A stretch of DNA of 15,333 nt, from positions 1-15,333 of the IMG/VR virus record IMGVR_UViG_3300010283_000228, one strand, 5' to 3'. The position numbers and the translations under genes were made by a program. The DNA is from a virus (lineage: Duplodnaviria; Heunggongvirae; Uroviricota; Caudoviricetes). Below are positions 843 to 15,259 of this stretch, piece by piece; the stretch's first letter is position 1, and the number at the start of each line of letters is the position of its first letter. The notes under the pieces were generated by a model. That model had not been told where the DNA came from. It made no database searches and was given only the letters and a program-made list of their open reading frames with translations.

Positions 843-2048
843 TCACATATTCGCCAATCGAATAAAACTCGGCATCCTTGGATCGGTGAACTTATACACG
901 CCTCTACCCAGTCTTTTTATTGTCGCTCCAAAATCCTTTTTAATTAAGCGTCCTGTATAGTTACTCATACTTTGGTTGTTATATCTCTCTCCAGTATCTT
1001 GATATATCTGGTTTATCCATTCTTTAACGCCAAACTCCTCATTTTTAAACTTTGACGCTGAATATAGAATTTTTTTGTACACATCTGTTTTAGATGAACG
1101 AACAGCATCCTCATACTCTCTTCTTAGCCTACCTTCAGCATTCTCAACTGATTTTTCAATTGATTTATGGAAGATTTCAGAATTAATAACTTTGCTTGAA
1201 TCAACAATGGCAGCCTCAGCAGCCTCCTTGCAAAGGAGGTGAGTAAAATATGGAAAGCCATTGCTTATATCAACTATTTGATTTTTAATTTCATCGTCAA
1301 ACCTTAGTCCTAATCCCTTTTCTCCCAGACTGATTATTTCTAACAGATGCTTTTCATCAACCCCTCCCAGACAAACCTCATGCAGGCATCTATTAACAGA
1401 TTCATGCCCTGCCGTAAGGCTTTTACCATCCTTAGAAATTCCCACAAGCAATACTTTCAATTTCGAATTAAAATCGCTCAACTGCTTTATAAACTCTGCA
1501 ACAGCTTTCTTTATATCGTCTTCTAATACATCAAACTCATCTATAACGAGAACCCCCTGAATTATTCCAATAGTCGCTGCTGCCTTTCGAGGAGTTATTT
1601 CATCTCGTTCTATAGTTATTTTTTCTTCATAACCCACGTTACCAGTAAAGAAACTAAAAAACTTTGCAGATAAGCCTGCCTTTATTACTTTCTCTTCCTT
1701 ATACTTTTCCGGGTTTTGTGAGATAAATATTGCACATTCAGAGACGATATCTTTAAATTTAGTGTTAGTATCACACTTCACATTAAAATACTCACCTAAA
1801 AGTACGTTGTATTGCCTGCCACCAATAACTGTAGCATTAGCTAATGAGCTCTTTCCGATTCCTCTATCACCATATATCATACAATGCCTACCAGGAACCG
1901 TTAAATTATCTAAAATACTTCTCACTTCAGTATCTCTCCCCTTTAAATACTCAGGATTAGATATAGGAGTTGAAGGAGTATAATATTTATTCACATCATC
2001 TTTTTTTGCAAATTCTTGTGCATACTCTGCAAAAATATTCACATACAT
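843..2048 (-). CDS. stand-alone P-loop NTPase (AAA+/AAA_16-like ATPase domain with uncharacterised C-terminal region), 401 aa
   Basis: Long ORF with a GGAG Shine-Dalgarno about 6 nt upstream of the ATG at 2048. Translation shows Walker A GDRGIGKSS preceded by an LKGRDTE motif typical of AAA_16-type NTPases, and Walker B VLVIDEFD. Visibly AT-rich compared with the island backbone. Flanked by its own upstream and downstream terminators. Confidence 0.85.
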   Translation of the reverse strand: MYVNIFAEYAQEFAKKDDVNKYYTPSTPISNPEYLKGRDTEVRSILDNLTVPGRHCMIYGDRGIGKSSLANATVIGGRQYNVLLGEYFNVKCDTNTKFKDIVSECAIFISQNPEKYKEEKVIKAGLSAKFFSFFTGNVGYEEKITIERDEITPRKAAATIGIIQGVLVIDEFDVLEDDIKKAVAEFIKQLSDFNSKLKVLLVGISKDGKSLTAGHESVNRCLHEVCLGGVDEKHLLEIISLGEKGLGLRFDDEIKNQIVDISNGFPYFTHLLCKEAAEAAIVDSSKVINSEIFHKSIEKSVENAEGRLRREYEDAVRSSKTDVYKKILYSASKFKNEEFGVKEWINQIYQDTGERYNNQSMSNYTGRLIKKDFGATIKRLGRGVYKFTDPRMPSFIRLANM

Positions 2049-2470: not shown

Positions 2471-2752
2471 CCTTAGGAAATCTTAGGGGCTGGTTGACAC
2501 TTTCCGGCTTAAGACCTTAACAAATCTTAACATCGCAGGTTGACACACTTGACACTTTTTCGCGAAAAACCTTATCAAACCTTAGCATTTCTGAGCATGG
2601 CAACTTGACACTTTTCGCGATTTTTTCGGCTTTTTGACGAGGTAAATCTGGCGCAAAGCCAGTAACGGCGGGGTTTACAGCGAGGTTGACACTTTTTCGC
2701 GTTCAGAGTGTAAAGTGTCAACCTGGCAAGCTGCTCAACTTGACACTTTTTG
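2471..2752. repeat. array of short repeats: at least six TTGACAC(T)TTTTCGCG units plus one inverted copy, interleaved with three CCTTA-N-AAATCTTA units
   Basis: TTGACAC at about 2494, 2541, 2549, 2606, 2687 and 2740; inverted GTGTCAACC at 2716-2724; CCTTAGGAAATCTTAGG at 2471, CCTTAACAAATCTTAACA at 2514, CCTTATCAAACCTTAGCA at 2570. All seen directly in the sequence. Sits immediately downstream of the wHTH gene and upstream of the 59-aa ORF and ATPase. Confidence 0.75.
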
Positions 2753-2755
2753 ATG

Positions 2756-3292
2756 TCATTGATGGTCTGATTTTTCCCATTCAGCCAGGGCGTTTAGCCC
2801 GGCTTCACTCCATGATTCCAGTTCATCGGGATAATCACCTGCAACATAGCAGAGTTCGCAACGTAGCATACGAATTGCCAGCCTGGCATTACCTCGCAAA
2901 TTGTATTTTTCAAAGTAATGCTGCCCTTCATCATCCTCAAGGCAGATAGCACCATCATCAAGAAAGAGCACTTCCCAGCCTAATTCCCCGGCTGCATACA
3001 GCACACGCTGCTGTATGTCATCGTCCGTTACTGGCGAAGGAATTTTACCGTCTCTGGCCTTAACTGCTTTCCAGAATTCGCCCCACGTCATTTCCAGCGT
3101 TCTTTCTGGCCACATTTCAGAAACGGTGTCTTTCCCTTGTGCCGGTGGGCTGTTCCGCTGCTCTGTCGCCTCCACATCAATTTTTTTGCCAGACATGATC
3201 ACTTCGCCTTTCTCGATCCAGTCGTAAACTGTCTGGCGGCTTACGCCTTTGTATTTGGCGTATTCGGCTTTACTCATCAACATGTAGCTCAC
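2756..3292 (-). CDS. winged-HTH DNA-binding protein with phage Nu1/small-terminase-like N-terminus, 178 aa (function uncertain: packaging-redirection or regulator)
   Basis: GAGGTG Shine-Dalgarno 6 nt upstream of the ATG at 3292. N-terminal KAEYAKYKGVSRQTVYDWIEKG aligns by eye with the lambda Nu1 HTH (KKQLADIFGASIRTIQNWQEQG) and also with the MerR/excisionase-type HTH. Acidic C-terminal half. Confidence 0.8.
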   Translation of the reverse strand: MSYMLMSKAEYAKYKGVSRQTVYDWIEKGEVIMSGKKIDVEATEQRNSPPAQGKDTVSEMWPERTLEMTWGEFWKAVKARDGKIPSPVTDDDIQQRVLYAAGELGWEVLFLDDGAICLEDDEGQHYFEKYNLRGNARLAIRMLRCELCYVAGDYPDELESWSEAGLNALAEWEKSDHQ

Positions 3293-3382
3293 CTCATGCG
3301 TATACGATAAAAAATAATTTCATGCGGAAAGGGAATGCGTTGTGGGTATGGAGGAAAGGGGCAATAACCGCCCCTTACTGAT

Positions 3383-3655
3383 TCAGTTGCGCCAGGATGG
3401 CTGGCTAAGCGTGGTTTTCATTACATCATTGACGACCTGTTTTACGATTTCTGTGTTGGCAGTCGTGCTTTCAACATCAACAAAGCCATAATCGCCAATT
3501 TCCACCGTCAGGGATTCCAGTTTCTTCCCTAGAGCATCAGGCAACTCTCCACTGAACCGGTGCTGAAGATTTTCCACCAGCAACGCCCTGAATGCCTCGC
3601 TGTTCTCTTTTTTCTGCCATAGCTGGCGTTTATCCACTCTGATATTTAATTTCAC
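3383..3655 (-). CDS. hypothetical protein, 90 aa, translationally coupled to the upstream 55-aa gene
   Basis: GTG start at 3655 overlaps the TGA stop of the upstream gene (GTGA), with GAGGTG about 5 nt upstream. Protein-like composition; no recognisable motif. Confidence 0.55.
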   Translation of the reverse strand: MKLNIRVDKRQLWQKKENSEAFRALLVENLQHRFSGELPDALGKKLESLTVEIGDYGFVDVESTTANTEIVKQVVNDVMKTTLSQPSWRN

Positions 3656-3819
3656 AGTCTCACCTCTTTAAGTGCCTTATCCATCAGTTGCCGGGCGATA
3701 ACATGAATCGACGGTGCCACACCAAGCACAGATTTCTGACGCTCTTCGTCCTGGATGCGTTGCAGGGCTTCGATCTGCCTCCGGGAAAGTAAAACTGGCT
3801 TTACTCCGTGATTTTTCAT
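3652..3819 (-). CDS. small putative DNA-binding protein, 55 aa (MKNHGVKPVLLSRRQIEALQRIQDEERQKSVLGVAPSIHVIARQLMDKALKEVRL)
   Basis: Internal ATG of the 107-aa track ORF, with AGAAGGGA Shine-Dalgarno 5 nt upstream. The N-terminal part of the track ORF is Cys/Asn-rich and runs through palindromic operator DNA, so it is judged non-coding. Perfect palindromes lie 20-70 bp upstream. Confidence 0.5.
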   Translation of the reverse strand: MKNHGVKPVLLSRRQIEALQRIQDEERQKSVLGVAPSIHVIARQLMDKALKEVRL

Positions 3820-3838
3820 GATGATCCCTTCTGAATGA

Positions 3839-3891
3839 CAATAATTGCAATTATTGCACAAATTGAAATGATACCAGAGACAATTGCAATA
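3839..3891. promoter_or_regulatory. operator-like palindromes upstream of the 55-aa/90-aa module
   Basis: Perfect 18-bp palindrome CAATAATTGCAATTATTG at 3839-3856 and a related AATTGCAATA at 3882-3891, just upstream of the Shine-Dalgarno of the 55-aa gene. Confidence 0.5.
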
Positions 3892-4097
3892 AATGAAACG
3901 AAAAGCATCAATAAACCAACCTTCGGCACTGAATGCTCTGATTTTTCTGCAAAGGTATGGCAGATGTTGGTGCATGCAAACATAAAGGCAATAGCAGAAG
4001 AAGCTGCGGGGAGTGAAAAGGGGAAGTTTTTATAAATACACGATTGTCGCCTCACTGCAGGTTAACAGCCACAAGCTCCATGATAATAACTTGTTAA

Positions 4098-4421
4098 TTA
4101 TTTCATCAGATTTTTCATTATTTGCGCGATTGAGTACACAAGCAAAAACTCGGCAGCCGCAAGAGTATAAAAAACATAAATTCGCTTAGCCCACCGACGA
4201 TGAAAGAACTCCTCAGCATGGCCGGATGTTCGAGATACAAGCCATGCACCTACTGCACACAGAGCAGGTGCAATGAGCACAGTTATAAACCAGATTGTGA
4301 TGCCCATCCCATGCCTACTGATAATAGCCATTGGTATTGCAAAAATGAATGTTAGAGCAGCATTAGCTAATAGAATATCTTTTAAAGTATTTTCAATTAG
4401 TTTTGCTAGATTATCTTTCAT
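4098..4421 (-). CDS. small integral membrane protein, 107 aa, three predicted hydrophobic helices
   Basis: Three hydrophobic segments of about 20 residues each (ILLANAALTFIFAIPMAIIS, ITIWFITVLIAPALCAVGAWLV, IYVFYTLAAAEFLLVYSIAQIM). TGGGGGA lies 4 nt upstream of the ATG. AT-rich. Confidence 0.65.
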   Translation of the reverse strand: MKDNLAKLIENTLKDILLANAALTFIFAIPMAIISRHGMGITIWFITVLIAPALCAVGAWLVSRTSGHAEEFFHRRWAKRIYVFYTLAAAEFLLVYSIAQIMKNLMK

Positions 4422-4451
4422 CTAATCCCCCACGTTGAACATTAATATATA

Positions 4452-4474
4452 AAAGCCCCTTACTAAGGGGCTTT
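4452..4474 (-). terminator. rho-independent terminator after the lipoprotein gene
   Basis: 10-bp perfect stem aaagcccctt (4452-4461) / aaggggcttt (4465-4474), followed on the minus-strand transcript by UAUAUAUU. Confidence 0.55.
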
Positions 4475-4485
4475 GCACGGATTGT

Positions 4486-5628
4486 TTAAAGGGAACTTTT
4501 TTTCGCCCCTTCAATTTCTGCCTGACAAATTTCGTCATTTGTAAATGAGTACTGCAGATAGACATATCCCTGAGTGGAATTGTTCGCTCTGGCCTCAATA
4601 GATATAGTATCAATATTGTTTTTTAATGGTATTTCTTTTGTTCCCTTCCATGTAGCAGATAAGAAGCGTTCTTTTTTGTTTAGCCCCCTCATCCAGTCCT
4701 GAGGATCTTTCCAAATTGAACCAGCCAGCAAAAAGTCTGTAGTATCAGCCTTTCCATACAGAGAACTTAAAGAATTACTCAATTCTTCAAACTTGGATTT
4801 AAGAGCCAATCCATAGCTATCAGTATCAATATTTTTTCCTAAAGCCCGTATTTGACATAAACCAGCTTTCGGGGAGATCAGCAAACCATACATTTCAAAA
4901 TCTGCGTTTTGCTTCGGTAATTTATCAGAAGTATACAGATTCACACTGTCTGGTAGTGGCTTGAGCTTAGCACCGATCATATCTTCGATGTTTTTCTGTG
5001 TAAGACCGGCTTCTAAGCCAAACGGACCATCCGCTGGCGGGAGTAAAGGAAGTTGCTCTTGGGAATTTTTGGCTGTTACTTCCGTTTCAGTACTGTTTTT
5101 TGCGTCATTAGCTTGTACTGATGCCAGCTTAACTTCAGCGAGGCCATACTTGGCTGTGAGGTACTTTTGCTGCAACATTGCCATGGTCTGCTCTTCAGTG
5201 GCAACAGTAGATAATTTTAGTACCTTTATCAGACCACCACTATACTGACGAGCATCAGCTTTGGCTTCGTTGATTTTTGCATCTAAGCTGTCAATTTCAG
5301 TTTTAATTGAAGCCGCAAGCTCAGGATCAGGTTTTACTCCAGATACAACAACATCAATTTTGGCACCTGATTCAATAGCATTAATACGCTGTTCCAAAAG
5401 CGCTTTATTAGTTCCTAATATTTCCAGTCTTGCTGTTGTCAGATTTTTTATCAACCCACCAGAAAACTGCTGGTCAACTTCCTTAGCTGCTGATATTTCA
5501 CCTTCCGTTTGCGACAGTTCAGCTTTAAGAGCAGCTACTTCCTGTTTCTGTTCTGGAGTTAACTCTTCTGGCCCACATCCGGTTAACATTACTATACCGA
5601 CTAATGTTGCAATTAAAGTTTTATTCAT
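4486..5628 (-). CDS. lipoprotein, 380 aa, with internally repeated SGGLIK-containing module and uncharacterised C-terminal domain
   Basis: N-terminus MNKTLIATLVGIVMLTGC is a signal peptide ending in a lipobox (LTGC). Two related segments, QQFSGGLIKNL and RQYSGGLIKVL, each sit in a charged, helix-prone context. Long protein-like ORF, AT-rich. Shine-Dalgarno is weak (AGGG 2 nt from the ATG). Confidence 0.8.
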   Translation of the reverse strand: MNKTLIATLVGIVMLTGCGPEELTPEQKQEVAALKAELSQTEGEISAAKEVDQQFSGGLIKNLTTARLEILGTNKALLEQRINAIESGAKIDVVVSGVKPDPELAASIKTEIDSLDAKINEAKADARQYSGGLIKVLKLSTVATEEQTMAMLQQKYLTAKYGLAEVKLASVQANDAKNSTETEVTAKNSQEQLPLLPPADGPFGLEAGLTQKNIEDMIGAKLKPLPDSVNLYTSDKLPKQNADFEMYGLLISPKAGLCQIRALGKNIDTDSYGLALKSKFEELSNSLSSLYGKADTTDFLLAGSIWKDPQDWMRGLNKKERFLSATWKGTKEIPLKNNIDTISIEARANNSTQGYVYLQYSFTNDEICQAEIEGAKKSSL

Positions 5629-5762
5629 ATCCCTATTCCAAATGAAAATATTCAGATTAATCTTATCAGGAACCCAGATGCAATTGAATATTCATCTGCT
5701 CAGCAACGTAGTAGATTTCCTCAGAAAGCATCAACAAAAAACCAAGAGAATCCCATCCTCTG

Positions 5763-6050
5763 TTACTGACTACAATTGTTCTTTTTTTGGTATTTCCTGA
5801 ATGCCTCACCATTGGGCTGATGTAATCCCATCCCGGCATGTGCCCGGCTGATGGTTTCGCGCATCTCCCCGAAATTATCCTGCCTTGCTGGTGGGCGTGC
5901 TGCCTTGTGGATACATTCCGCGCGACGTTTTGCCGCCTGTTCCCGTGCCTTGTCATCATTCGCCAGCATGATGACCTCAGCCCACCGCGCCGCCGCTCTC
6001 CGGTACAGACCACGCGCTTCCAGTGCTTCCGCTTTGCTGTCGTGAATCAT
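5763..6050 (-). CDS. PerC/Pch-family-like small transcriptional activator, 95 aa
   Basis: N-terminal AEALEARGLYRRAAARWAEV matches the remembered PerC/Pch signature (A..LE..GLWRRAA..W). ATG at 6050 overlaps the TGA of the upstream FinO-like gene (ATGA). Confidence 0.65.
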   Translation of the reverse strand: MIHDSKAEALEARGLYRRAAARWAEVIMLANDDKAREQAAKRRAECIHKAARPPARQDNFGEMRETISRAHAGMGLHQPNGEAFRKYQKKNNCSQ

Positions 6051-6589
6051 GCGCCTATTGTCTCCTTTGCTGCCCGGCGCTGGCGTTTGCGCTTCTCATT
6101 CAGCGCCACCAGCCGCGTTTCTGCGTCCTGTTGTTCCTGTGGTGTCACCTCGCCGCACGGCTGGCCTTTCAGGTCGTAGCGTACCCCACCAGCCATTAAG
6201 GCGCGGTAATAGCGCGGACACTGCGCATAAGATGCCAGCGTCGCACGCAATGCCCCTGGCCCGAATGCCAGCCCCCTGACGGCGAGATCCTGCATCAGGT
6301 CGTCGAATATCCCCACCTTAAGCGGCTTCAGTGCTTCCCGGCTGAATAAGTCAGGCCACAACTCAGTGAGGCGGTTAACGCGCCTGCGGTTTTTGCGCTG
6401 GCGTTTGGTCATATGCCGCCACGGTGTCGCCCCTGTAGGCTTCTGCTGCGCTTTCTGGTTACCGGGCATCACTTTATGCGCCGATGTGGTTTTATCCTGC
6501 TCCTGTGCCGCCTGCGTCGTTTTCTGCGGCGTGCCGTAAATACCTTTTGGTTTTCTGTTAATGGTCAGCTTAGTCATGCTTTGCCCCAT
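6047..6589 (-). CDS. ProQ/FinO-domain RNA-binding protein, 180 aa (alternative start at 6577)
   Basis: Segment WPDLFSREALKPLKVGIFDDLMQDL...YAQCPRYYRALMAGGVRYDLKGQPCGEVTPQEQQDAE aligns by eye with the E. coli ProQ N-terminal FinO domain ([55 protein letters not shown]). Basic N-terminal tail. Confidence 0.8.
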   Translation of the reverse strand: MGQSMTKLTINRKPKGIYGTPQKTTQAAQEQDKTTSAHKVMPGNQKAQQKPTGATPWRHMTKRQRKNRRRVNRLTELWPDLFSREALKPLKVGIFDDLMQDLAVRGLAFGPGALRATLASYAQCPRYYRALMAGGVRYDLKGQPCGEVTPQEQQDAETRLVALNEKRKRQRRAAKETIGA

Positions 6590-6595
6590 CGTTAC

Positions 6596-6933
6596 AACTG
6601 TCTACCAACTGTCTACCGATATAATTGATTGATTTATTTAATGTTATTAACACATAACAAAAAAACAATCTGCAAACTGTCTACCAACGGTCTACCGCAT
6701 TAATACATTGATAATTAATGATTTTTACTAAATGGTAGACAGTGTAGACAGTTAAAAGAGAAATTTAAAAAATGCCCCCTTAACTATCTGTTTTTTATAT
6801 ACCCCCCGTGGTTTAGGAATATAGAAATAACTGTCTACCTCTCTACCACATTGAAAATATCTTTATAATTCAAAATATTAATTGGTAGATGGTTGGTAGA
6901 GGGTTAAGTGAATCTGTCTACCAACCGTCTACC
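6596..6933. repeat. iteron array (about 12 copies of AACTGTCTACC in direct and inverted pairs) with AT-rich spacers; candidate replication origin
   Basis: Tandem direct pairs at 6596-6617, 6675-6696, 6829-6847 and 6914-6933; inverted pairs GGTAGACAGTGTAGACAG at 6734-6751 and GGTAGATGGTTGGTAGAG at 6884-6900; AT-rich stretches between. Lies immediately 3' of the primase gene. Confidence 0.75.
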
Positions 6934-6960
6934 TTTACGTTTCAGCTTATAAATTTCGTA

Positions 6961-8766
6961 TTATGTTCTGTCGTTAATCCCTGTAGCTGCTGGCAACCAG
7001 CCATCAGCATCATCATCTAACAGAACATTTGTTATCACTCGCCCTTTATCCGGGCCTTTAGTGCATTTAGCCCGCTTATACTCCTTTCCGTATTCCGCCA
7101 TAGCTCCTGGCATATCAGTACCAAAGCGTGTCAGTGATACTGGTTTTCCCAGGCCATGCGCTGACATATAGGCTAAATAAGCATGATACAGGTATCGCCT
7201 CGGGCTAAATGGCACTATTTCCGCATTGCCCACCATCATTCCTTCACATTTAACCAACGACATCAGATAGCCGCAAAAGTCCACCAGTGAATCACCTTCG
7301 CGCTTTATCAACAGCGCTTCTTCTGATTTTTGCTGCTCATAAAGTAGTCTTTTAGCTTCGTCCTGGTCGGTAAATCGTGTTAGCAAATGGCGAATCACTA
7401 CCGCCAGTTCGCCTTCTATCTTTTCCGCCAGCATGGGATCGCGTTCGTTCTCCGGTACGACCTCAGAGAAATTAAATATCACCCTACGACGCGAGATCCC
7501 CCCGCTTCGGTCACTGAATGACATGGCGTTATTGTTTACCGCAAGCACTACTGCCGGAATACGTGTGGAGTAGGGGGCTTTATGTTTCGGATCAATTGCC
7601 ACCTTGTCGCCGCCAGTAATTGCCTTAATTCCTGCACCATCGCCAGCGTAGCGAGTCATATCCGGCATGATAATCAGCGAAAAGCCAACTACTAACGCGC
7701 GTTCCCTTGCGTCTTCCAGAGCCTTCATGCTTGCCGATACTGTGTTGGCCTTACCCGCCAGCATGGTACAAATCTCAGCCATCACACTTTTACCGCTTCC
7801 GCCTGGGCCTGTTACCTCAAGGAATAACTGCCAGTCGTACCGGTTCGCCAGCACCATGAATAATGCCGCCAGTACGCGATCAGCTTTACGATCATTATCT
7901 GCCACCGAACGACGCAGCCACTTCCAGAAATTCGGCGCATGTGTTGCCAGCGTTTCCCCCTCTGCTGGTGGGCTGAACGGTAATTCACTGGCATTTAACA
8001 ACCAGTCATTTTTGTTATGCTCCCGAAAATTTCCCGTCCGGGTATCAAATACCCCGTTACTGAATCCAATAAGATTCCTGTCTGCCCCGCCCATAACAGG
8101 CAGGCTCAATTTCATTGTGTCTACGGCAAATTTAATGGCGTTTTGCGAATAACTGATTCCAGCATCAATAAAAATCTTCGCCATAGACCGCTGGAGTTCC
8201 TTATCAGATACAGGCACCCAGACAATTCCGTTGTAATGGTGAACTACATCAGAATCATCATTTATAGCCAGTGCTCTTCCATAATATTCAAGTAACACTT
8301 CCCCTCTCTGGCTGGCTCCCATCTGATTTAGTGCTGGCCTGGATAGGTCAATATTTTTTGTGGCTAATTTCATCGCTGAAACTTCCCCACTCTCTGCCTG
8401 TTCGCGGATCCGTTGCAGGTAGTCGCGCCAGTTTTCCGGCTCCCGGTCGGTGATACCTTTGTATAATTTCGCGTCCTGTACACCAGCCAGCGCCAGCTTT
8501 TCAGCAATAGCATTGATCTGGATTGGCTCTATCTCCCCCGCGAGATAGACACGTGCAAAGCGGCGTTTCTCGTCAATAATGCGGATATTCGCCAGGTCTG
8601 CCAGTTGCTTTGGCCCCAGATAAACAGGTGGCACGTTATCGCCGTGTTTTCGTCCTTCGCTTTCAATCCAGTGTTGAGCATGGGCGTAAGCATCCGTCCC
8701 GGCAAAAATGATTACCTCGGTGAATTTATCCTTCGGCTGATATTTTAAATTCGGTGCGTTTTTCAC
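6961..8766 (-). CDS. P4 alpha-like phage/plasmid primase-helicase (replication initiator), 601 aa
   Basis: Walker A GPGGSGKS in the C-terminal half. Overall resemblance to P4-family primase C-terminal regions is from memory of that family. GTG start at 8766 overlaps the upstream TGA, with GGGGAGG about 8 nt upstream. Confidence 0.88.
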   Translation of the reverse strand: MKNAPNLKYQPKDKFTEVIIFAGTDAYAHAQHWIESEGRKHGDNVPPVYLGPKQLADLANIRIIDEKRRFARVYLAGEIEPIQINAIAEKLALAGVQDAKLYKGITDREPENWRDYLQRIREQAESGEVSAMKLATKNIDLSRPALNQMGASQRGEVLLEYYGRALAINDDSDVVHHYNGIVWVPVSDKELQRSMAKIFIDAGISYSQNAIKFAVDTMKLSLPVMGGADRNLIGFSNGVFDTRTGNFREHNKNDWLLNASELPFSPPAEGETLATHAPNFWKWLRRSVADNDRKADRVLAALFMVLANRYDWQLFLEVTGPGGSGKSVMAEICTMLAGKANTVSASMKALEDARERALVVGFSLIIMPDMTRYAGDGAGIKAITGGDKVAIDPKHKAPYSTRIPAVVLAVNNNAMSFSDRSGGISRRRVIFNFSEVVPENERDPMLAEKIEGELAVVIRHLLTRFTDQDEAKRLLYEQQKSEEALLIKREGDSLVDFCGYLMSLVKCEGMMVGNAEIVPFSPRRYLYHAYLAYMSAHGLGKPVSLTRFGTDMPGAMAEYGKEYKRAKCTKGPDKGRVITNVLLDDDADGWLPAATGINDRT

Positions 8767-9077
8767 TTCTTACCTCCCCGCTCACGAATAATTTCACGTA
8801 CTGTCCTGATGCGTTCCGCGCCCGTGACGCTCATGATTTTGTCTATGTCGCTTAATTCTGCTGGTGGCGCTTTACTTACCAGGATGAATTCCCTTTCAAA
8901 GCGCATATGTGACGACACGCAGGGATGCGCATAACCTTTGCGGATATAGGTCACGCGAAAATCATCGACGGTTTTAATCGTTATCGTGCCGCCGTATTTA
9001 TCCCGGAAAATATCGCCGGGACGAATTTCAGGCCGAGAGAGACCGCTGACAGTAAAGCCAGAATTTTTCAGTTTCAT
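8763..9077 (-). CDS. hypothetical protein, 104 aa, coupled to the primase gene
   Basis: AGGAAA about 8 nt upstream of the ATG at 9077; stop overlaps the primase start. Protein-like basic composition. Confidence 0.6.
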   Translation of the reverse strand: MKLKNSGFTVSGLSRPEIRPGDIFRDKYGGTITIKTVDDFRVTYIRKGYAHPCVSSHMRFEREFILVSKAPPAELSDIDKIMSVTGAERIRTVREIIRERGGKK

Positions 9078-10442: not shown

Positions 10443-11615
10443 AATCGTTACCTCATTTAACGGTTTGGTTAGACGCCCCGCTACTGCCGCAAACAGTTCG
10501 GGGCGTTGTCGTTTATATCCTCTTACTGAGGTGTGATTTAAATTAAATTTAACTGAATCACAGGTCAAGTATTTTTTGTGATTCTTTTTTGTGTATACTG
10601 AATCACATCTTTTGTTTAGGAGAATGCACATGGCAAAAAACACTATCAACGACAAATCAAAACAGATTTCAATTCGTATCCCACATGATGCTTTTGAAGG
10701 CATGGAATCCGTAAAACTGGACGGCGAAAGCAACGCCGGATTCATAGTAACCGCCATGCGTGGTGAGATCGCCCGCCGCCAGGCAGAAGGAAGCGGAGAA
10801 AATCCCCTGGTTTCTTCGCTCAATGCACTGGCGCAGGTGGAAAAAATCGGAGTCAAAGCTGTCGAGGAGATCGGGCAGCTCGTCACCGTCGCACGTGAAG
10901 AACTCCAGCGCCGCAAGGCCAAAGAATCAGAATAATAACTATCATCGCCGTGGTGTGAGGAACTCCGGCGCATTGCTTTACAGGTACACAGAATGACCAA
11001 CAAAGAATCGACCAATACACCATCACCGGCACGGAAAAGACAGCGCAGAAAGATAACGTACGAATATGAGTCAGACAGATTCGCGCCCTGTGCGTTTATC
11101 CTTGAGAAATTCCTTAAAGAGTACAGGCGCACAAAAATGGGGTCGCATACCTGGAAAACATCGCGGCATGGCAATGTTAAAGAGCAGGAATAGCCCACCA
11201 GCAAGCCAACACACTGATCACATTGCCCACCAGCCGCAAATCTGGCATTGTTGGCGATGTGTTCAAGTGTGTAGCTTTCCCACTGGTGGCCCTCTGCGGT
11301 CGCCTTTGTTTTATCCAGAACGAAATTAGACATCAGATTGATCATCACCTTGCGACCTGACAAAATCGCATCAGTCGCGCCACCAGCAAAATTTTTTGCT
11401 TTCCGGACAGCGTGACCAACGACATTTTGCAGCAAAATATTCTGCATTTCTGGCGTGCTGTAGTAACGGTGATCAGCGCCTTCACTCTGTGCGACCACAA
11501 CGCTATAATCTGCCTCGTAGACAGTAAGCAATATGGCGCAGTAGGCTATTCGTTCACAAAGGCGCTCCGGCAACGGGGCGCTTTCTCTTTTTGTAACGGT
11601 CAGAGCGTTACACAT
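10077..11615 (-). CDS. 512-codon open frame; real translation start at 11615 but middle section probably not a genuine protein
   Basis: ATG at 11615 has GGAGGA upstream and the same ATGTGTAA stop/start overlap as the other coupled genes. The first ~140 codons look protein-like. The middle ~250 codons are Ser/Cys/Arg-rich and run antisense through the RHH gene and the AT-rich promoter region. No in-frame stop before 10077. Confidence 0.3.
   Translation of the reverse strand: MCNALTVTKRESAPLPERLCERIAYCAILLTVYEADYSVVVAQSEGADHRYYSTPEMQNILLQNVVGHAVRKAKNFAGGATDAILSGRKVMINLMSNFVLDKTKATAEGHQWESYTLEHIANNARFAAGGQCDQCVGLLVGYSCSLTLPCRDVFQVCDPIFVRLYSLRNFSRINAQGANLSDSYSYVIFLRCLFRAGDGVLVDSLLVILCTCKAMRRSSSHHGDDSYYSDSLALRRWSSSRATVTSCPISSTALTPIFSTCASALSEETRGFSPLPSAWRRAISPRMAVTMNPALLSPSSFTDSMPSKASCGIRIEICFDLSLIVFFAMCILLNKRCDSVYTKKNHKKYLTCDSVKFNLNHTSVRGYKRQRPELFAAVAGRLTKPLNEVTIMAGAQHTQTHPKFIYTFLAVHRDCMADGKNTVHVAADTLVDACEMLNDMGYISATWKGREENTLFIQKCENNFIWRFIALSTAQPRVIHIEATSEQEARQQSPDGCVMVFAARIRQEVEHV
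10533..10607. promoter_or_regulatory. divergent promoter region with two operator-like inverted repeats TGTGATT-N16-AATCACA
   Basis: TGTGATT at 10533 and 10578, AATCACA at 10556 and 10601, giving operators centred about 45 bp apart. A TATACT -10-like hexamer at 10594-10599 overlaps the second operator, upstream of the plus-strand RHH gene. Confidence 0.5.
10630..10935 (+). CDS. Arc/CopG-type ribbon-helix-helix DNA-binding protein, 101 aa (candidate island repressor)
   Basis: TAGGAGA Shine-Dalgarno 6 nt upstream of the ATG at 10630. KQISIRIPHDAFEGMESVKLDGE followed by SNAGFIVTAMRGEI fits the strand-helix-helix pattern of Arc-like repressors. Coiled-coil-like C-terminal half. Only plus-strand gene in the island, directly after the operator repeats. 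Confidence 0.55.
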   Translation: MAKNTINDKSKQISIRIPHDAFEGMESVKLDGESNAGFIVTAMRGEIARRQAEGSGENPLVSSLNALAQVEKIGVKAVEEIGQLVTVAREELQRRKAKESE

Positions 11616-12534: not shown

Positions 12535-12732
12535 TCAGGTAGCTGTTCCGCGTGATTCCGCAATACGCTGATTAATCCACTCGTCAATTTCACTCTCAAC
12601 GAAAGCAATAGCTCGCGAGCCAATTTTAACTGATGCAGGAAATTTACCTTGCCCCATAAGGCGATAAATCCATGCCTTGCTATATCCAGTTCTACGCTGA
12701 ACTTCCGTTAAACGAATAAGAGAGTTTGCCAT
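12535..12732 (-). CDS. alpA: AlpA-family prophage transcriptional regulator, 65 aa
   Basis: MANSLIRLTEVQRRTGYSKAWIYRLMGQGKFPASVKIGSRAIAFVESEIDEWI is the characteristic AlpA-type HTH. AAGGTGA 4 nt upstream of the ATG. Confidence 0.85.
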   Translation of the reverse strand: MANSLIRLTEVQRRTGYSKAWIYRLMGQGKFPASVKIGSRAIAFVESEIDEWINQRIAESRGTAT

Positions 12733-13802: not shown

Positions 13803-15017
13803 TCACCCGCATTTTCCGAACTCACCATGCACCACATTTCCGCCATGCTCGAGCGAATCCATATAGTCGGCATACCACTGGAGCATCTCCCGGCGACCAT
13901 CCAGATATTGCGCATGGTTGTATGTGCCACGAATTGAGTTTTTATCGACGTGTGCGAGCTGTGTCTCTATCCACGCGGTGTTATAGCCCTGCTCATGCAA
14001 AATGGTGCTCATGGTGTGCCGGAATCCATGACCAGTAACCTTTCCGTTATAGCCGATGCGTTTAAATACTTGGTTTATGCTAGCCTCGCTCATTGTTTTC
14101 CTTGGATCATTACGGCCGGGAAACATAAGCGGATAATTGCCAGTTAATTCTTTAATCTGCCCAATAAGCGAAAGAGCCTGCTTAGACAAAGGCACCACAT
14201 GAGGGCGACGCATTTTCATCCGTGAAGCAGGTATCTCCCAGATAGCCTTGTTGAGATCGATTTCATCCCATAATGCACCGCGCAGTTCGCCAGTCCGCAA
14301 ACCGGTGATAATCAGTAGACGAGCCGCCATAACAACCAATGCACTTCCTGAGTAACTGGACAATGCCTTGAAAAAATCAGGTAATTCTTTGGCTGTGAGG
14401 AAAGGATAATGATTAGATTCATGACCTTGCATCGCGCTGGTGAGATCCGGTGCAGGGTTATACTCAGCACGTCCAGTGACAATTGCATAGCGGAAAACCT
14501 CCCCGCATCGCTGCCTCACTTTTTTGGCTTTTTCGGTAGCACCGCGCCCCTCGATGCGCCGCAGCACATTCAGCAGTTCAAGTGGTTTGATTTCGGCGAT
14601 TGGTTTTTTGCCAATGTAAGGGAACACATCTTTGTTGAAGGCTTCGAGGATGTCTGAAGCATAACCAGCAGACCATTTTTTTAATTTGCTGCTGTGCCAC
14701 TCAAGGGCAATATCTTTGAAGGTGTTGTTTAACTGCGTTTCCCGGGCAATCTTTTCCTCTCGTTTCGCTTCCATCGGATCGATACCCCCAGCGATACCCC
14801 TTTTAGCTTCTTCACGTTTTGCACGAGCATCAGCCAAGGTAACTTCAGGATACACACCTAGTGCTAACAGCTTCTCTTTACCAGCTACACGATACTTGAA
14901 GCGCCAATATTTTCCTCCACTAGGTTTTACCAAGAGATACAGACCGCCACCATCAGCCAGCTTGTAAGCCTTCTCTTTTGGCTTGGCAGTGTCTATTTGA
15001 CGGGCATTGAGTTTCAC
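13803..15017 (-). CDS. int: P4-family tyrosine integrase, 404 aa
   Basis: N-terminus KPKEKAYKLADGGGLYLLVKPSGGKYWRFKYR is the hallmark of P4-type integrases. Catalytic-region motifs TGLRTGELRG, HGFRHT and RGTYNHAQY are present. GTG start with GGAGG 9 nt upstream. Located 166 bp from the 3' end of the tRNA. Confidence 0.9.
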   Translation of the reverse strand: MKLNARQIDTAKPKEKAYKLADGGGLYLLVKPSGGKYWRFKYRVAGKEKLLALGVYPEVTLADARAKREEAKRGIAGGIDPMEAKREEKIARETQLNNTFKDIALEWHSSKLKKWSAGYASDILEAFNKDVFPYIGKKPIAEIKPLELLNVLRRIEGRGATEKAKKVRQRCGEVFRYAIVTGRAEYNPAPDLTSAMQGHESNHYPFLTAKELPDFFKALSSYSGSALVVMAARLLIITGLRTGELRGALWDEIDLNKAIWEIPASRMKMRRPHVVPLSKQALSLIGQIKELTGNYPLMFPGRNDPRKTMSEASINQVFKRIGYNGKVTGHGFRHTMSTILHEQGYNTAWIETQLAHVDKNSIRGTYNHAQYLDGRREMLQWYADYMDSLEHGGNVVHGEFGKCG

Positions 15018-15048: not shown

Positions 15049-15071
15049 ATACCCCCAAAAGTACCCCCAAT
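15049..15071. repeat. 23-bp direct repeat ATACCCCCAAAAGTACCCCCAAT, copy 2, with nearby inverted GTACCCCCAA-like copies; candidate integrase arm sites
   Basis: Identical to 251-273. Inverted partial copies TTGGGGGTAC at 15018-15027 and TTTTGGGGTAC at 15082-15092 flank it, between the integrase start codon and the tRNA. Confidence 0.6.
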
Positions 15072-15183: not shown

Positions 15184-15259
15184 TGGTGCCGATAAGAGGA
15201 GTCGAACCTCCGACCTTCGCATTACGAATGCGCTGCTCTACCAACTGAGCTATATCGGC
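15184..15259 (-). tRNA. thrW: tRNA-Thr (anticodon CGU)
   Basis: Reverse complement reads GCCGATATAGCTCAGTTGGTAGAGCAGCGCATTCGTAATGCGAAGGTCGGAGGTTCGACTCCTCTTATCGGCACCA: 7-bp acceptor stem, D arm, anticodon loop TTCGTAA (anticodon CGT), T arm GGAGG/TTCGACT/CCTCT, 3' CCA. The thrW symbol is assigned because CGU is the thrW anticodon in E. coli. Confidence 0.9.

Follow-up and report, generated by a model that had tools for sequence, protein, structure and literature searches.

In Gram-negative PICIs, the replication origin lies immediately 3' of rep, where sets of iterons flank an AT-rich region (Fillol-Salom et al. 2018, PMC6092414). The pri-ori segment of EcCICFT073 alone sustains a temperature-sensitive (ts) plasmid. 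No replication was obtained with the delta-pri construct, and colony numbers were significantly reduced with the delta-ori construct (PMC6092414). In SaPIs, Rep recognises iterons situated just past the 3' end of rep by means of a C-terminal winged helix, and it loads itself onto the DNA at either side of an AT-rich centre (PMC9371898). In the P4 record, type-1 repeats TGTTCACC are present in crr (4291-4590), directly after the alpha gene (4636-6969, minus strand), and they are found again in ori 4.5 kb away.

Here, a repeat array at 6596-6933 was analysed in a viral DNA stretch of 15,333 nucleotides (the window), which represents a 14.8 kb island of E. coli. From sequence comparison, we consider it likely, with good confidence, that this array is the vegetative origin of a Gram-negative-type PICI of ~14.8 kb situated beside tRNA-Thr in E. 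coli. The preliminary description had proposed a satellite or PICI origin fired by its own initiator. The proposal gains support from the gene order and iteron core shared with EcCICFT073, from the origin-binding domain (OBD) of the replicase, from a natural cassette swap and from the covariation of iterons with that domain.

The island and its iteron array

The main genes of the island are all on the minus strand. Read leftward, their order is integrase, AlpA-like HTH, Icd-like, DUF4222, replicase, array, ProQ and PerC, and then small genes follow. The P4-type integrase gene is located at 13803-15017, the AlpA-like HTH gene at 12535-12732 and the DUF4222 gene at 8763-9077, all on the minus strand, with an AntA gene between the latter two in the operon order. 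Immediately downstream of the proposed origin is the gene of a ProQ/FinO-family RNA chaperone (6047-6589, minus strand), and just downstream of it is that of a PerC-family activator (5763-6050, minus strand). The tRNA-Thr gene is at 15184-15259. An exact 23-bp direct repeat, ATACCCCCAAAAGTACCCCCAAT, occurs at 251-273 and 15049-15071, ~14.8 kb apart. The right copy is not within the tRNA-Thr gene but in the gap that separates it from the integrase gene. The two copies are probably the island ends, attL and attR. The features by which PICIs are recognised are all present: an integrase at one end, unidirectional main genes, an AlpA-type regulator, flanking repeats and a size of ~8-15 kb. None of the E. 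coli PICIs in PMC6092414 and its supplement is at this att site, and a full-text literature search for the iteron string gave no match.

The array with its flanks was found in 98 of 5,426 complete E. coli genomes (~2%). E. coli strain 537-20 is 100% identical to the region over 701 bp. Its island copy has a frameshifted antA and a partial icd, so some copies of the island may be decaying. At the far end of the island, a segment of 34% GC encodes an nSTAND1/AAA NTPase of 401 amino acids (843-2048, minus strand), which is possibly an anti-phage defence gene. This end differs from that of strain 537-20, indicating variable cargo.

The array itself is composed of 12 iteron copies. The unit is 11 nt long with the core TGTCTACC, and the copies are grouped as six dyads separated by AT-rich spacers, four of them direct (P1, P2, P4 and P6, plus strand) and two inverted (P3 and P5, minus strand). 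The earlier count of about twelve copies in four direct and two inverted pairs was thereby borne out. Dyad P1 (6596-6617; copies at 6596 and 6607) contains AACTGTCTACC twice, and P2 (6675-6696; 6675 and 6686) contains AACTGTCTACC and AACGGTCTACC. P3 (6734-6754; 6734 and 6743) is formed by GGTAGACAGT and GTAGACAGTT at a 9-bp spacing. P4 (6829-6848; 6829 and ~6840) is formed by AACTGTCTACC and the shortened TCTCTACC. P5 (6884-6905; 6884 and 6895) consists of GGTAGATGGTT and GGTAGAGGGTT, each with two mismatches, and P6 (6912-6933; 6912 and 6923) of ATCTGTCTACC and AACCGTCTACC. P2 converges on P3 across spacer S2, and P4 on P5 across spacer S4. The spacing inside the dyads is 11 bp in P1, P2, P5 and P6 and 8-9 bp in P3 and P4. 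Only four of the copies are exact 11-mers, and the part that is conserved is the 8-mer core. The degeneration of P5 and of the second P4 copy counts against an origin.

The repeat array is real and non-random. With up to two mismatches allowed, the 11-mer has 18 matches in the window against 2.56 expected, a number reached by none of 200 shuffles, and 12 of the 18 fall within the 338 bp of the array. The exact heptamer GTCTACC occurs nine times in the window (0.75 expected), eight of them inside the array. The core 8-mer at up to one mismatch is found 10 times in the array, where its frequency elsewhere in the window would predict 0.34 (Poisson 4e-12). The replicase gene is on the minus strand, its stop codon reaching to 6961, and the array ends 27 bp further on, at 6933. 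The location directly 3' of the primase/helicase gene, as first described, is therefore correct for that strand.

Three of the spacers stand out by their AT content and low predicted duplex stability. S1 (6618-6674) is 81% AT with low duplex stability, S2 (6697-6733) is 84% AT, and S4 (6849-6883) is 89% AT and represents the second least stable 41-bp stretch in the whole window. Of the seven 41-bp stretches with the lowest stability in the 15.3 kb, three are in these spacers. S2 and S4 are candidate unwinding elements. The central spacer S3 (6755-6828; 74 bp) is 69% AT, carries two C-runs and is free of iterons. IHF-consensus matches number five in the window, and two of them are in the array, one in S1 (6622-6634, minus strand) and one in S2 (6701-6713, minus strand). 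For DnaA boxes, 46 matches were obtained in the window against 37 expected, with none clustered in the array.

P5 and P6 together make a 17-nt inverted repeat (6884-6933) just past the replicase stop codon. In the minus-strand replicase transcript, it is predicted to fold into a hairpin with a 16-bp stem (-26.1 kcal/mol, z = -5.3). The t-alpha terminator is at the same position in the P4 record, and the hairpin may double as a terminator. It might also attenuate read-through into proQ-perC. A search of the array region against Rfam returned sub-threshold chance hairpins only.

The stem, lying right after the stop where P4 has t-alpha, could be taken together with the degenerate dyads and the pseudogenes in some island copies. 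On these grounds the array might be a decayed remnant of an origin, mainly a replicase-titrating site for copy control or incompatibility, or the terminator of the replicase gene. The cores are also not conserved above the spacers among close variants: variable columns make up 12.5% of cores and 15.3% of spacers (p = 0.6) in a test with four sequences, namely the window, two E. coli variants at 92-95% identity and E. ruysiae, and this test does not discriminate. However, the 98 E. coli genomes and E. ruysiae, at 92-100% identity, preserve the dyad layout in full together with the six exact cores, and the reading frame of the replicase is uninterrupted. Across genera, the arrays could not be aligned globally on account of their spacers, which are unalignable. 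The arrays were compared by motif maps instead, and related arrays of other genera keep 10-12 cores in spite of their spacers. The roles of terminator and origin are moreover compatible. For these reasons, we consider a remnant, a titration site or a simple terminator quite improbable.

The replicase and the inheritance of the array

The replicase gene (6961-8766, minus strand, GTG start) encodes 601 amino acids with D5_N, DUF5906 and Pox_D5 domains. Its helicase core (codons 141-480; 7327-8346, minus strand) comprises D5_N and SF3 and matches the SaPI5 PriRep5 structure 7OLA with E = 9e-10. A match to the solved structure of the P4 alpha origin-binding winged helix (1KA8, E = 6e-19) spans residues 491-592 (6991-7296, minus strand). 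Residues 141-592 of the replicase and residues 322-769 of P4 alpha share 49% identity. For residues 1-140, there is neither an alignment to alpha 1-321 nor a Pfam match. Codons 1-129 (8380-8766, minus strand) form an N-terminal domain with a weak Toprim-like fold. In our reading of the P4 motif EGYATA, the replicase has Ala at the position of alpha E214. Since the protein aligns only to alpha 322-769 and is without the primase domain, the name 'primase' is unproven. The C-terminal winged helix (residues ~491-592) is probably the domain that reads the iterons.

The inheritance of the array can be followed in the sister island of an O104:H4 strain. Its identity to the window is 98% at 2492-6593 and 95% at 8383-8778, and the intervening 6594-8382 shows no similarity. 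This replication cassette (6594-8382, minus strand), which comprises the array and replicase codons ~129-601, has been replaced as one block. In its place stands an unrelated DUF927 replicase, followed by ~12-14 CGGGATA iterons in the style of dyads and AT spacers. The left breakpoint, 6593/6594, falls between ProQ and the array, 2 bp from the first iteron (P1). The right breakpoint is at replicase codon ~129. The two replicases are 95% identical in their first 129 residues and otherwise unrelated. The swap shows that the array is inherited with the helicase and OBD part of the gene, and not with ProQ or the N-terminal domain. The preliminary description had proposed a binding test with the N-terminal domain. 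Because a 95% identical N-terminal domain sits on a replicase with entirely different iterons, it is not the specificity determinant, and the binding domain has to be looked for at the C-terminus instead.

Further islands agree with this. In two of them (L003 and L004), different iterons (TGCGGGTTA and CTTGTCCCA) stand directly past the replicase stop. The array is separated from ProQ by SSB in L004 and by a hypothetical protein and SSB in L003, and ProQ lies behind SSB with a gap of ~36 bp in both. In another genome (NZ_CP157327), an IS1A is inserted at the ProQ start codon (~6580-6590 in window positions) with a 9-bp target duplication, GTCATGCTT. It splits proQ from an intact iteron array, which stays attached to the replicase. 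Judged from these sequences, the array follows the replicase and not ProQ.

The same islands bear on the proposal that the repeats are operators rather than an origin, either for transcription factors acting on proQ-perC or for autoregulation of the operon. A distance of 19 bp separates the annotated start codon of ProQ (ATG at 6577) from the array, and weak sigma-70-like matches are present inside the latter. Initiators often also autoregulate. However, a promoter and terminator scan of 6300-7300 was not above the shuffled expectation (3 promoter-like matches vs 2.7). The 5' part of ProQ is present in 316 of the 5,426 complete E. coli genomes, beside several replicase types, while the array is confined to the 98 genomes with this replicase. 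The iterons of L003 and L004 remain beside the replicase stop although ProQ stands behind SSB. The swap breakpoint between ProQ and the first iteron and the IS1 between the ProQ ATG and P1 point in the same direction. A role as operators alone is thus extremely unlikely, and the reading of the array as an origin is retained.

A second array, at 2490-2755, consists of seven TTGACAC(TT) repeats, one of them inverted. The preliminary description had called the iteron unrelated to this array. In sequence, this holds only in part, because the unit AAGTGTCAACC shares 9 of 11 positions with the iteron AACTGTCTACC. The near-iteron TGTCAACC is present in four copies at 2492-2723, 4.1 kb from the iteron array. 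In function, the separation is upheld, as the TTGACAC array does not depend on the replicase. The array directly follows the 3' end of a gene (2756-3292, minus strand) for a 178-aa TerS-like HTH protein. The N-terminal HTH of this protein gave a match to phrog_57, a family of terminase small subunits. Both are unchanged in the O104:H4 island with its unrelated replicase and iterons, so the TTGACAC array does not follow the replicase, and its candidacy as a second replicase site was rejected. For a packaging site, the model is given by cosB elements specific to PICIs, which Rpp-TerS reads (PMC6739421). The TTGACAC array appears to fit a packaging site better than a replicase site, and the 178-aa protein is a candidate Rpp-like protein of a PICI, with this array as its cosB-type packaging site. 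A lambda-type cosN was not found near the array.

Iteron class and the C-terminal domain

The replicase and array were compared with 26 homologues, made up of 23 loci from other Enterobacterales together with CFT073, vB_KppS-Ant and P4. In 24 of the 26, the array starts ~10-80 bp after the replicase stop. Each array has 7-12 cores, compared with 0-4 per 1.5 kb of gene. Six iteron classes were distinguished by their cores, TGTCTACC, TGTTCACC, TATCTACC, TGTCCACC, TGTCCGCC and TCTCCACC.

The iteron class tracks the C-terminal domain and not the helicase core, and it is unrelated to the identity of the N-terminal domain. Homologues with equal helicase-core identity to the window protein (87-88%) are split by iteron class on OBD identity, which is 86-88% for homologues of the same class and 71-74% for those of the TGTTCACC class. 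The difference is larger in the segment 558-580, with 78% identity in the same class and 44-50% in the TGTTCACC class. From the topology of winged helices, we infer that this segment is the wing. At the presumed tip of the wing, five residues are inserted in the clade of the window (CTKGPDKGR; KCTKGPDKGR in the window protein), and the proteins of the TGTTCACC class have a shorter wing.

One of the homologues, LR881103.1 ('Escherichia phage vB_KppS-Ant'), was deposited as a phage of 16.5 kb with integrase, capsid, portal and terminase genes. Its replicase is 73% identical to that of the window, and P4-type TGTTCACC iterons are located after it at 10780-11015. The record resembles a capsid-forming PICI more than a phage.

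A more specific idea can be put forward tentatively, and we regard it as possible rather than probable. The helicase-OBD-iteron block may be a self-contained and exchangeable specificity cassette, in which the wing tip would read the central two or three bases of a TGTYYACC-type iteron. If this were true, the six iteron classes would be mutually orthogonal replicon groups. P4-like satellites and PICIs could then share one cell, and neither would cross-fire with the other or titrate its initiator. The natural swap and the covariation of iterons with OBDs also offer specificity variants for orthogonal satellite replicons or for studies of satellite incompatibility.

Some features of the window array are unusual in this set. 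Most relatives have arrays of ~230 bp that start with '>>' and end with '<<' relative to the gene, whereas the array of the window is 338 bp long and starts with '<<'. The unusual length and orientation count against the reading as an origin.

Comparison with known satellite and plasmid origins

If the array is the origin, replication can be pictured as follows. Upon induction, the leftward operon would express the 601-aa replicase, a self-loading SF3 helicase-initiator related to P4 alpha. Its C-terminal winged helix (~491-592) would bind the TGTCTACC repeats, the copies of a dyad being one helical turn apart. The convergent dyads P2>>S2<<P3 and P4>>S4<<P5 bracket spacers of 35-37 bp with 84-89% AT. 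As has been suggested for SaPI Reps and P4 alpha, oligomers assembled on these dyads could melt S2 and S4 and be loaded as helicase rings to either side. DNA bending may be assisted by IHF. Priming would probably be left to the host primase, because the replicase is without the DnaG-type primase domain of P4 alpha.

Among the described systems, classical plasmid origins were considered as well. Iteron plasmids such as pSC101, R6K, RK2 and P1 have tandem direct iterons of 17-22 bp and a WH1-WH2 Rep that recruits DnaA and DnaB. The window shares with them initiator-binding repeats beside an AT-rich unwinding element and possible IHF sites. In contrast, its repeats are short dyads in both orientations with a period of 8-11 bp and without a DnaA-box cluster, and its initiator is itself a D5/SF3 helicase. 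A classical iteron-plasmid origin of the RepA, pi or TrfA type was rejected on account of repeat length, orientation, DnaA boxes and initiator type.

The resemblance to SaPI origins is closer in arrangement. In both, iterons lie just downstream of rep and point in opposite directions around an AT-rich region, and the initiator has a C-terminal winged helix. However, SaPI iterons are 5-6 nt long, whereas the core in the window has 8 nt in an 11-nt period, and the SaPI hosts are Gram-positive. Between the DNA-binding domain of SaPI Reps and that of the window replicase, no sequence similarity is detectable.

P4 provides both a likeness and an alternative. As in P4, the replicase combines an SF3 helicase with a C-terminal winged-helix OBD, here homologous to that of alpha, and the iterons are octamers of the TGTYYACC type, closely spaced in direct and inverted orientation. 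The type-1 iteron of P4, TGTTCACC, differs from TGTCTACC at two of eight positions. The N-terminal zinc-finger/DnaG-type primase domain of alpha is absent from the window replicase, which has a 5-residue insertion in the wing of the OBD relative to alpha, and the island is without sid, delta and psu. The array stands just after the replicase gene, as crr does after the alpha gene, and is its positional homologue. In P4, crr is an auxiliary cis site and initiation takes place at the second cluster 4.5 kb away, which counts against an origin here. The array might accordingly be an auxiliary cis site like crr that binds the replicase while replication starts elsewhere in the island. The 49% identity between replicase and alpha is in line with this, and the near-iteron cluster of TGTCAACC, 4.1 kb away, recalls the distance between ori and crr in P4. 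However, the scan that recovers both clusters of P4 found one cluster each in the window, EcCICFT073 and vB_KppS-Ant, with no second cluster apart from TGTCAACC. The TTGACAC/TGTCAACC array, for its part, is unchanged beside the unrelated replicase of the O104:H4 island. Furthermore, the pri-ori segment of EcCICFT073 sustained replication when it was cloned by itself (PMC6092414). An auxiliary role of this kind is hence very unlikely, and the array is better read as the origin.

The closest counterpart is EcCICFT073, the type example of Gram-negative PICIs. Its origin (7010-7240 of that island's record) contains ten copies of iterons, CTGTCTACC, GGTAGACAG and variants of them, with dyads in both orientations, and like the window array it is located immediately 3' of the replicase. 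A comparison with the origins of related islands had been advised in the preliminary description, and it gave here the same core, CTGTCTACC/GGTAGACAG. The order of the genes is also the same: int, AlpA-like HTH, YlcI, Icd, DUF4222, replicase, array and then PerC. There are several differences between the two islands. The EcCICFT073 array is ~230 bp long with 57% AT, whereas that of the window is 338 bp long with 68% AT and has another order and orientation relative to the gene. The att site is beside tRNA-Thr/proA in the window and at ycfD-phoQ in EcCICFT073. The array is followed by ProQ in the former and by a hypothetical protein and SSB in the latter, and, unlike EcCICFT073, the window island is without capsid genes. 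Pri-Rep of EcCICFT073 is 44% identical to the window replicase over the full length, and only 38% in the C-terminal domain. Replication dependent on Rep was shown for EcCICFT073 only, and we infer it for the window on the grounds that the iteron core is shared and the replicases are homologous. The origin function would thus be transferred from replicases that are only 44% (CFT073) or 49% (P4 alpha) identical.

The characteristics given for PICI origins in PMC6092414 are found in the window, namely a location 3' of the initiator gene and sets of iterons that flank an AT-rich region. The analysis points to the probable cis-acting origin and a likely reader domain for a PICI lineage with ProQ/FinO and PerC-type regulators, and it leaves the current picture of satellite replication unchanged. 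The array is very probably an ordinary further case of the kind of origin that has already been shown to work in the sister island EcCICFT073.
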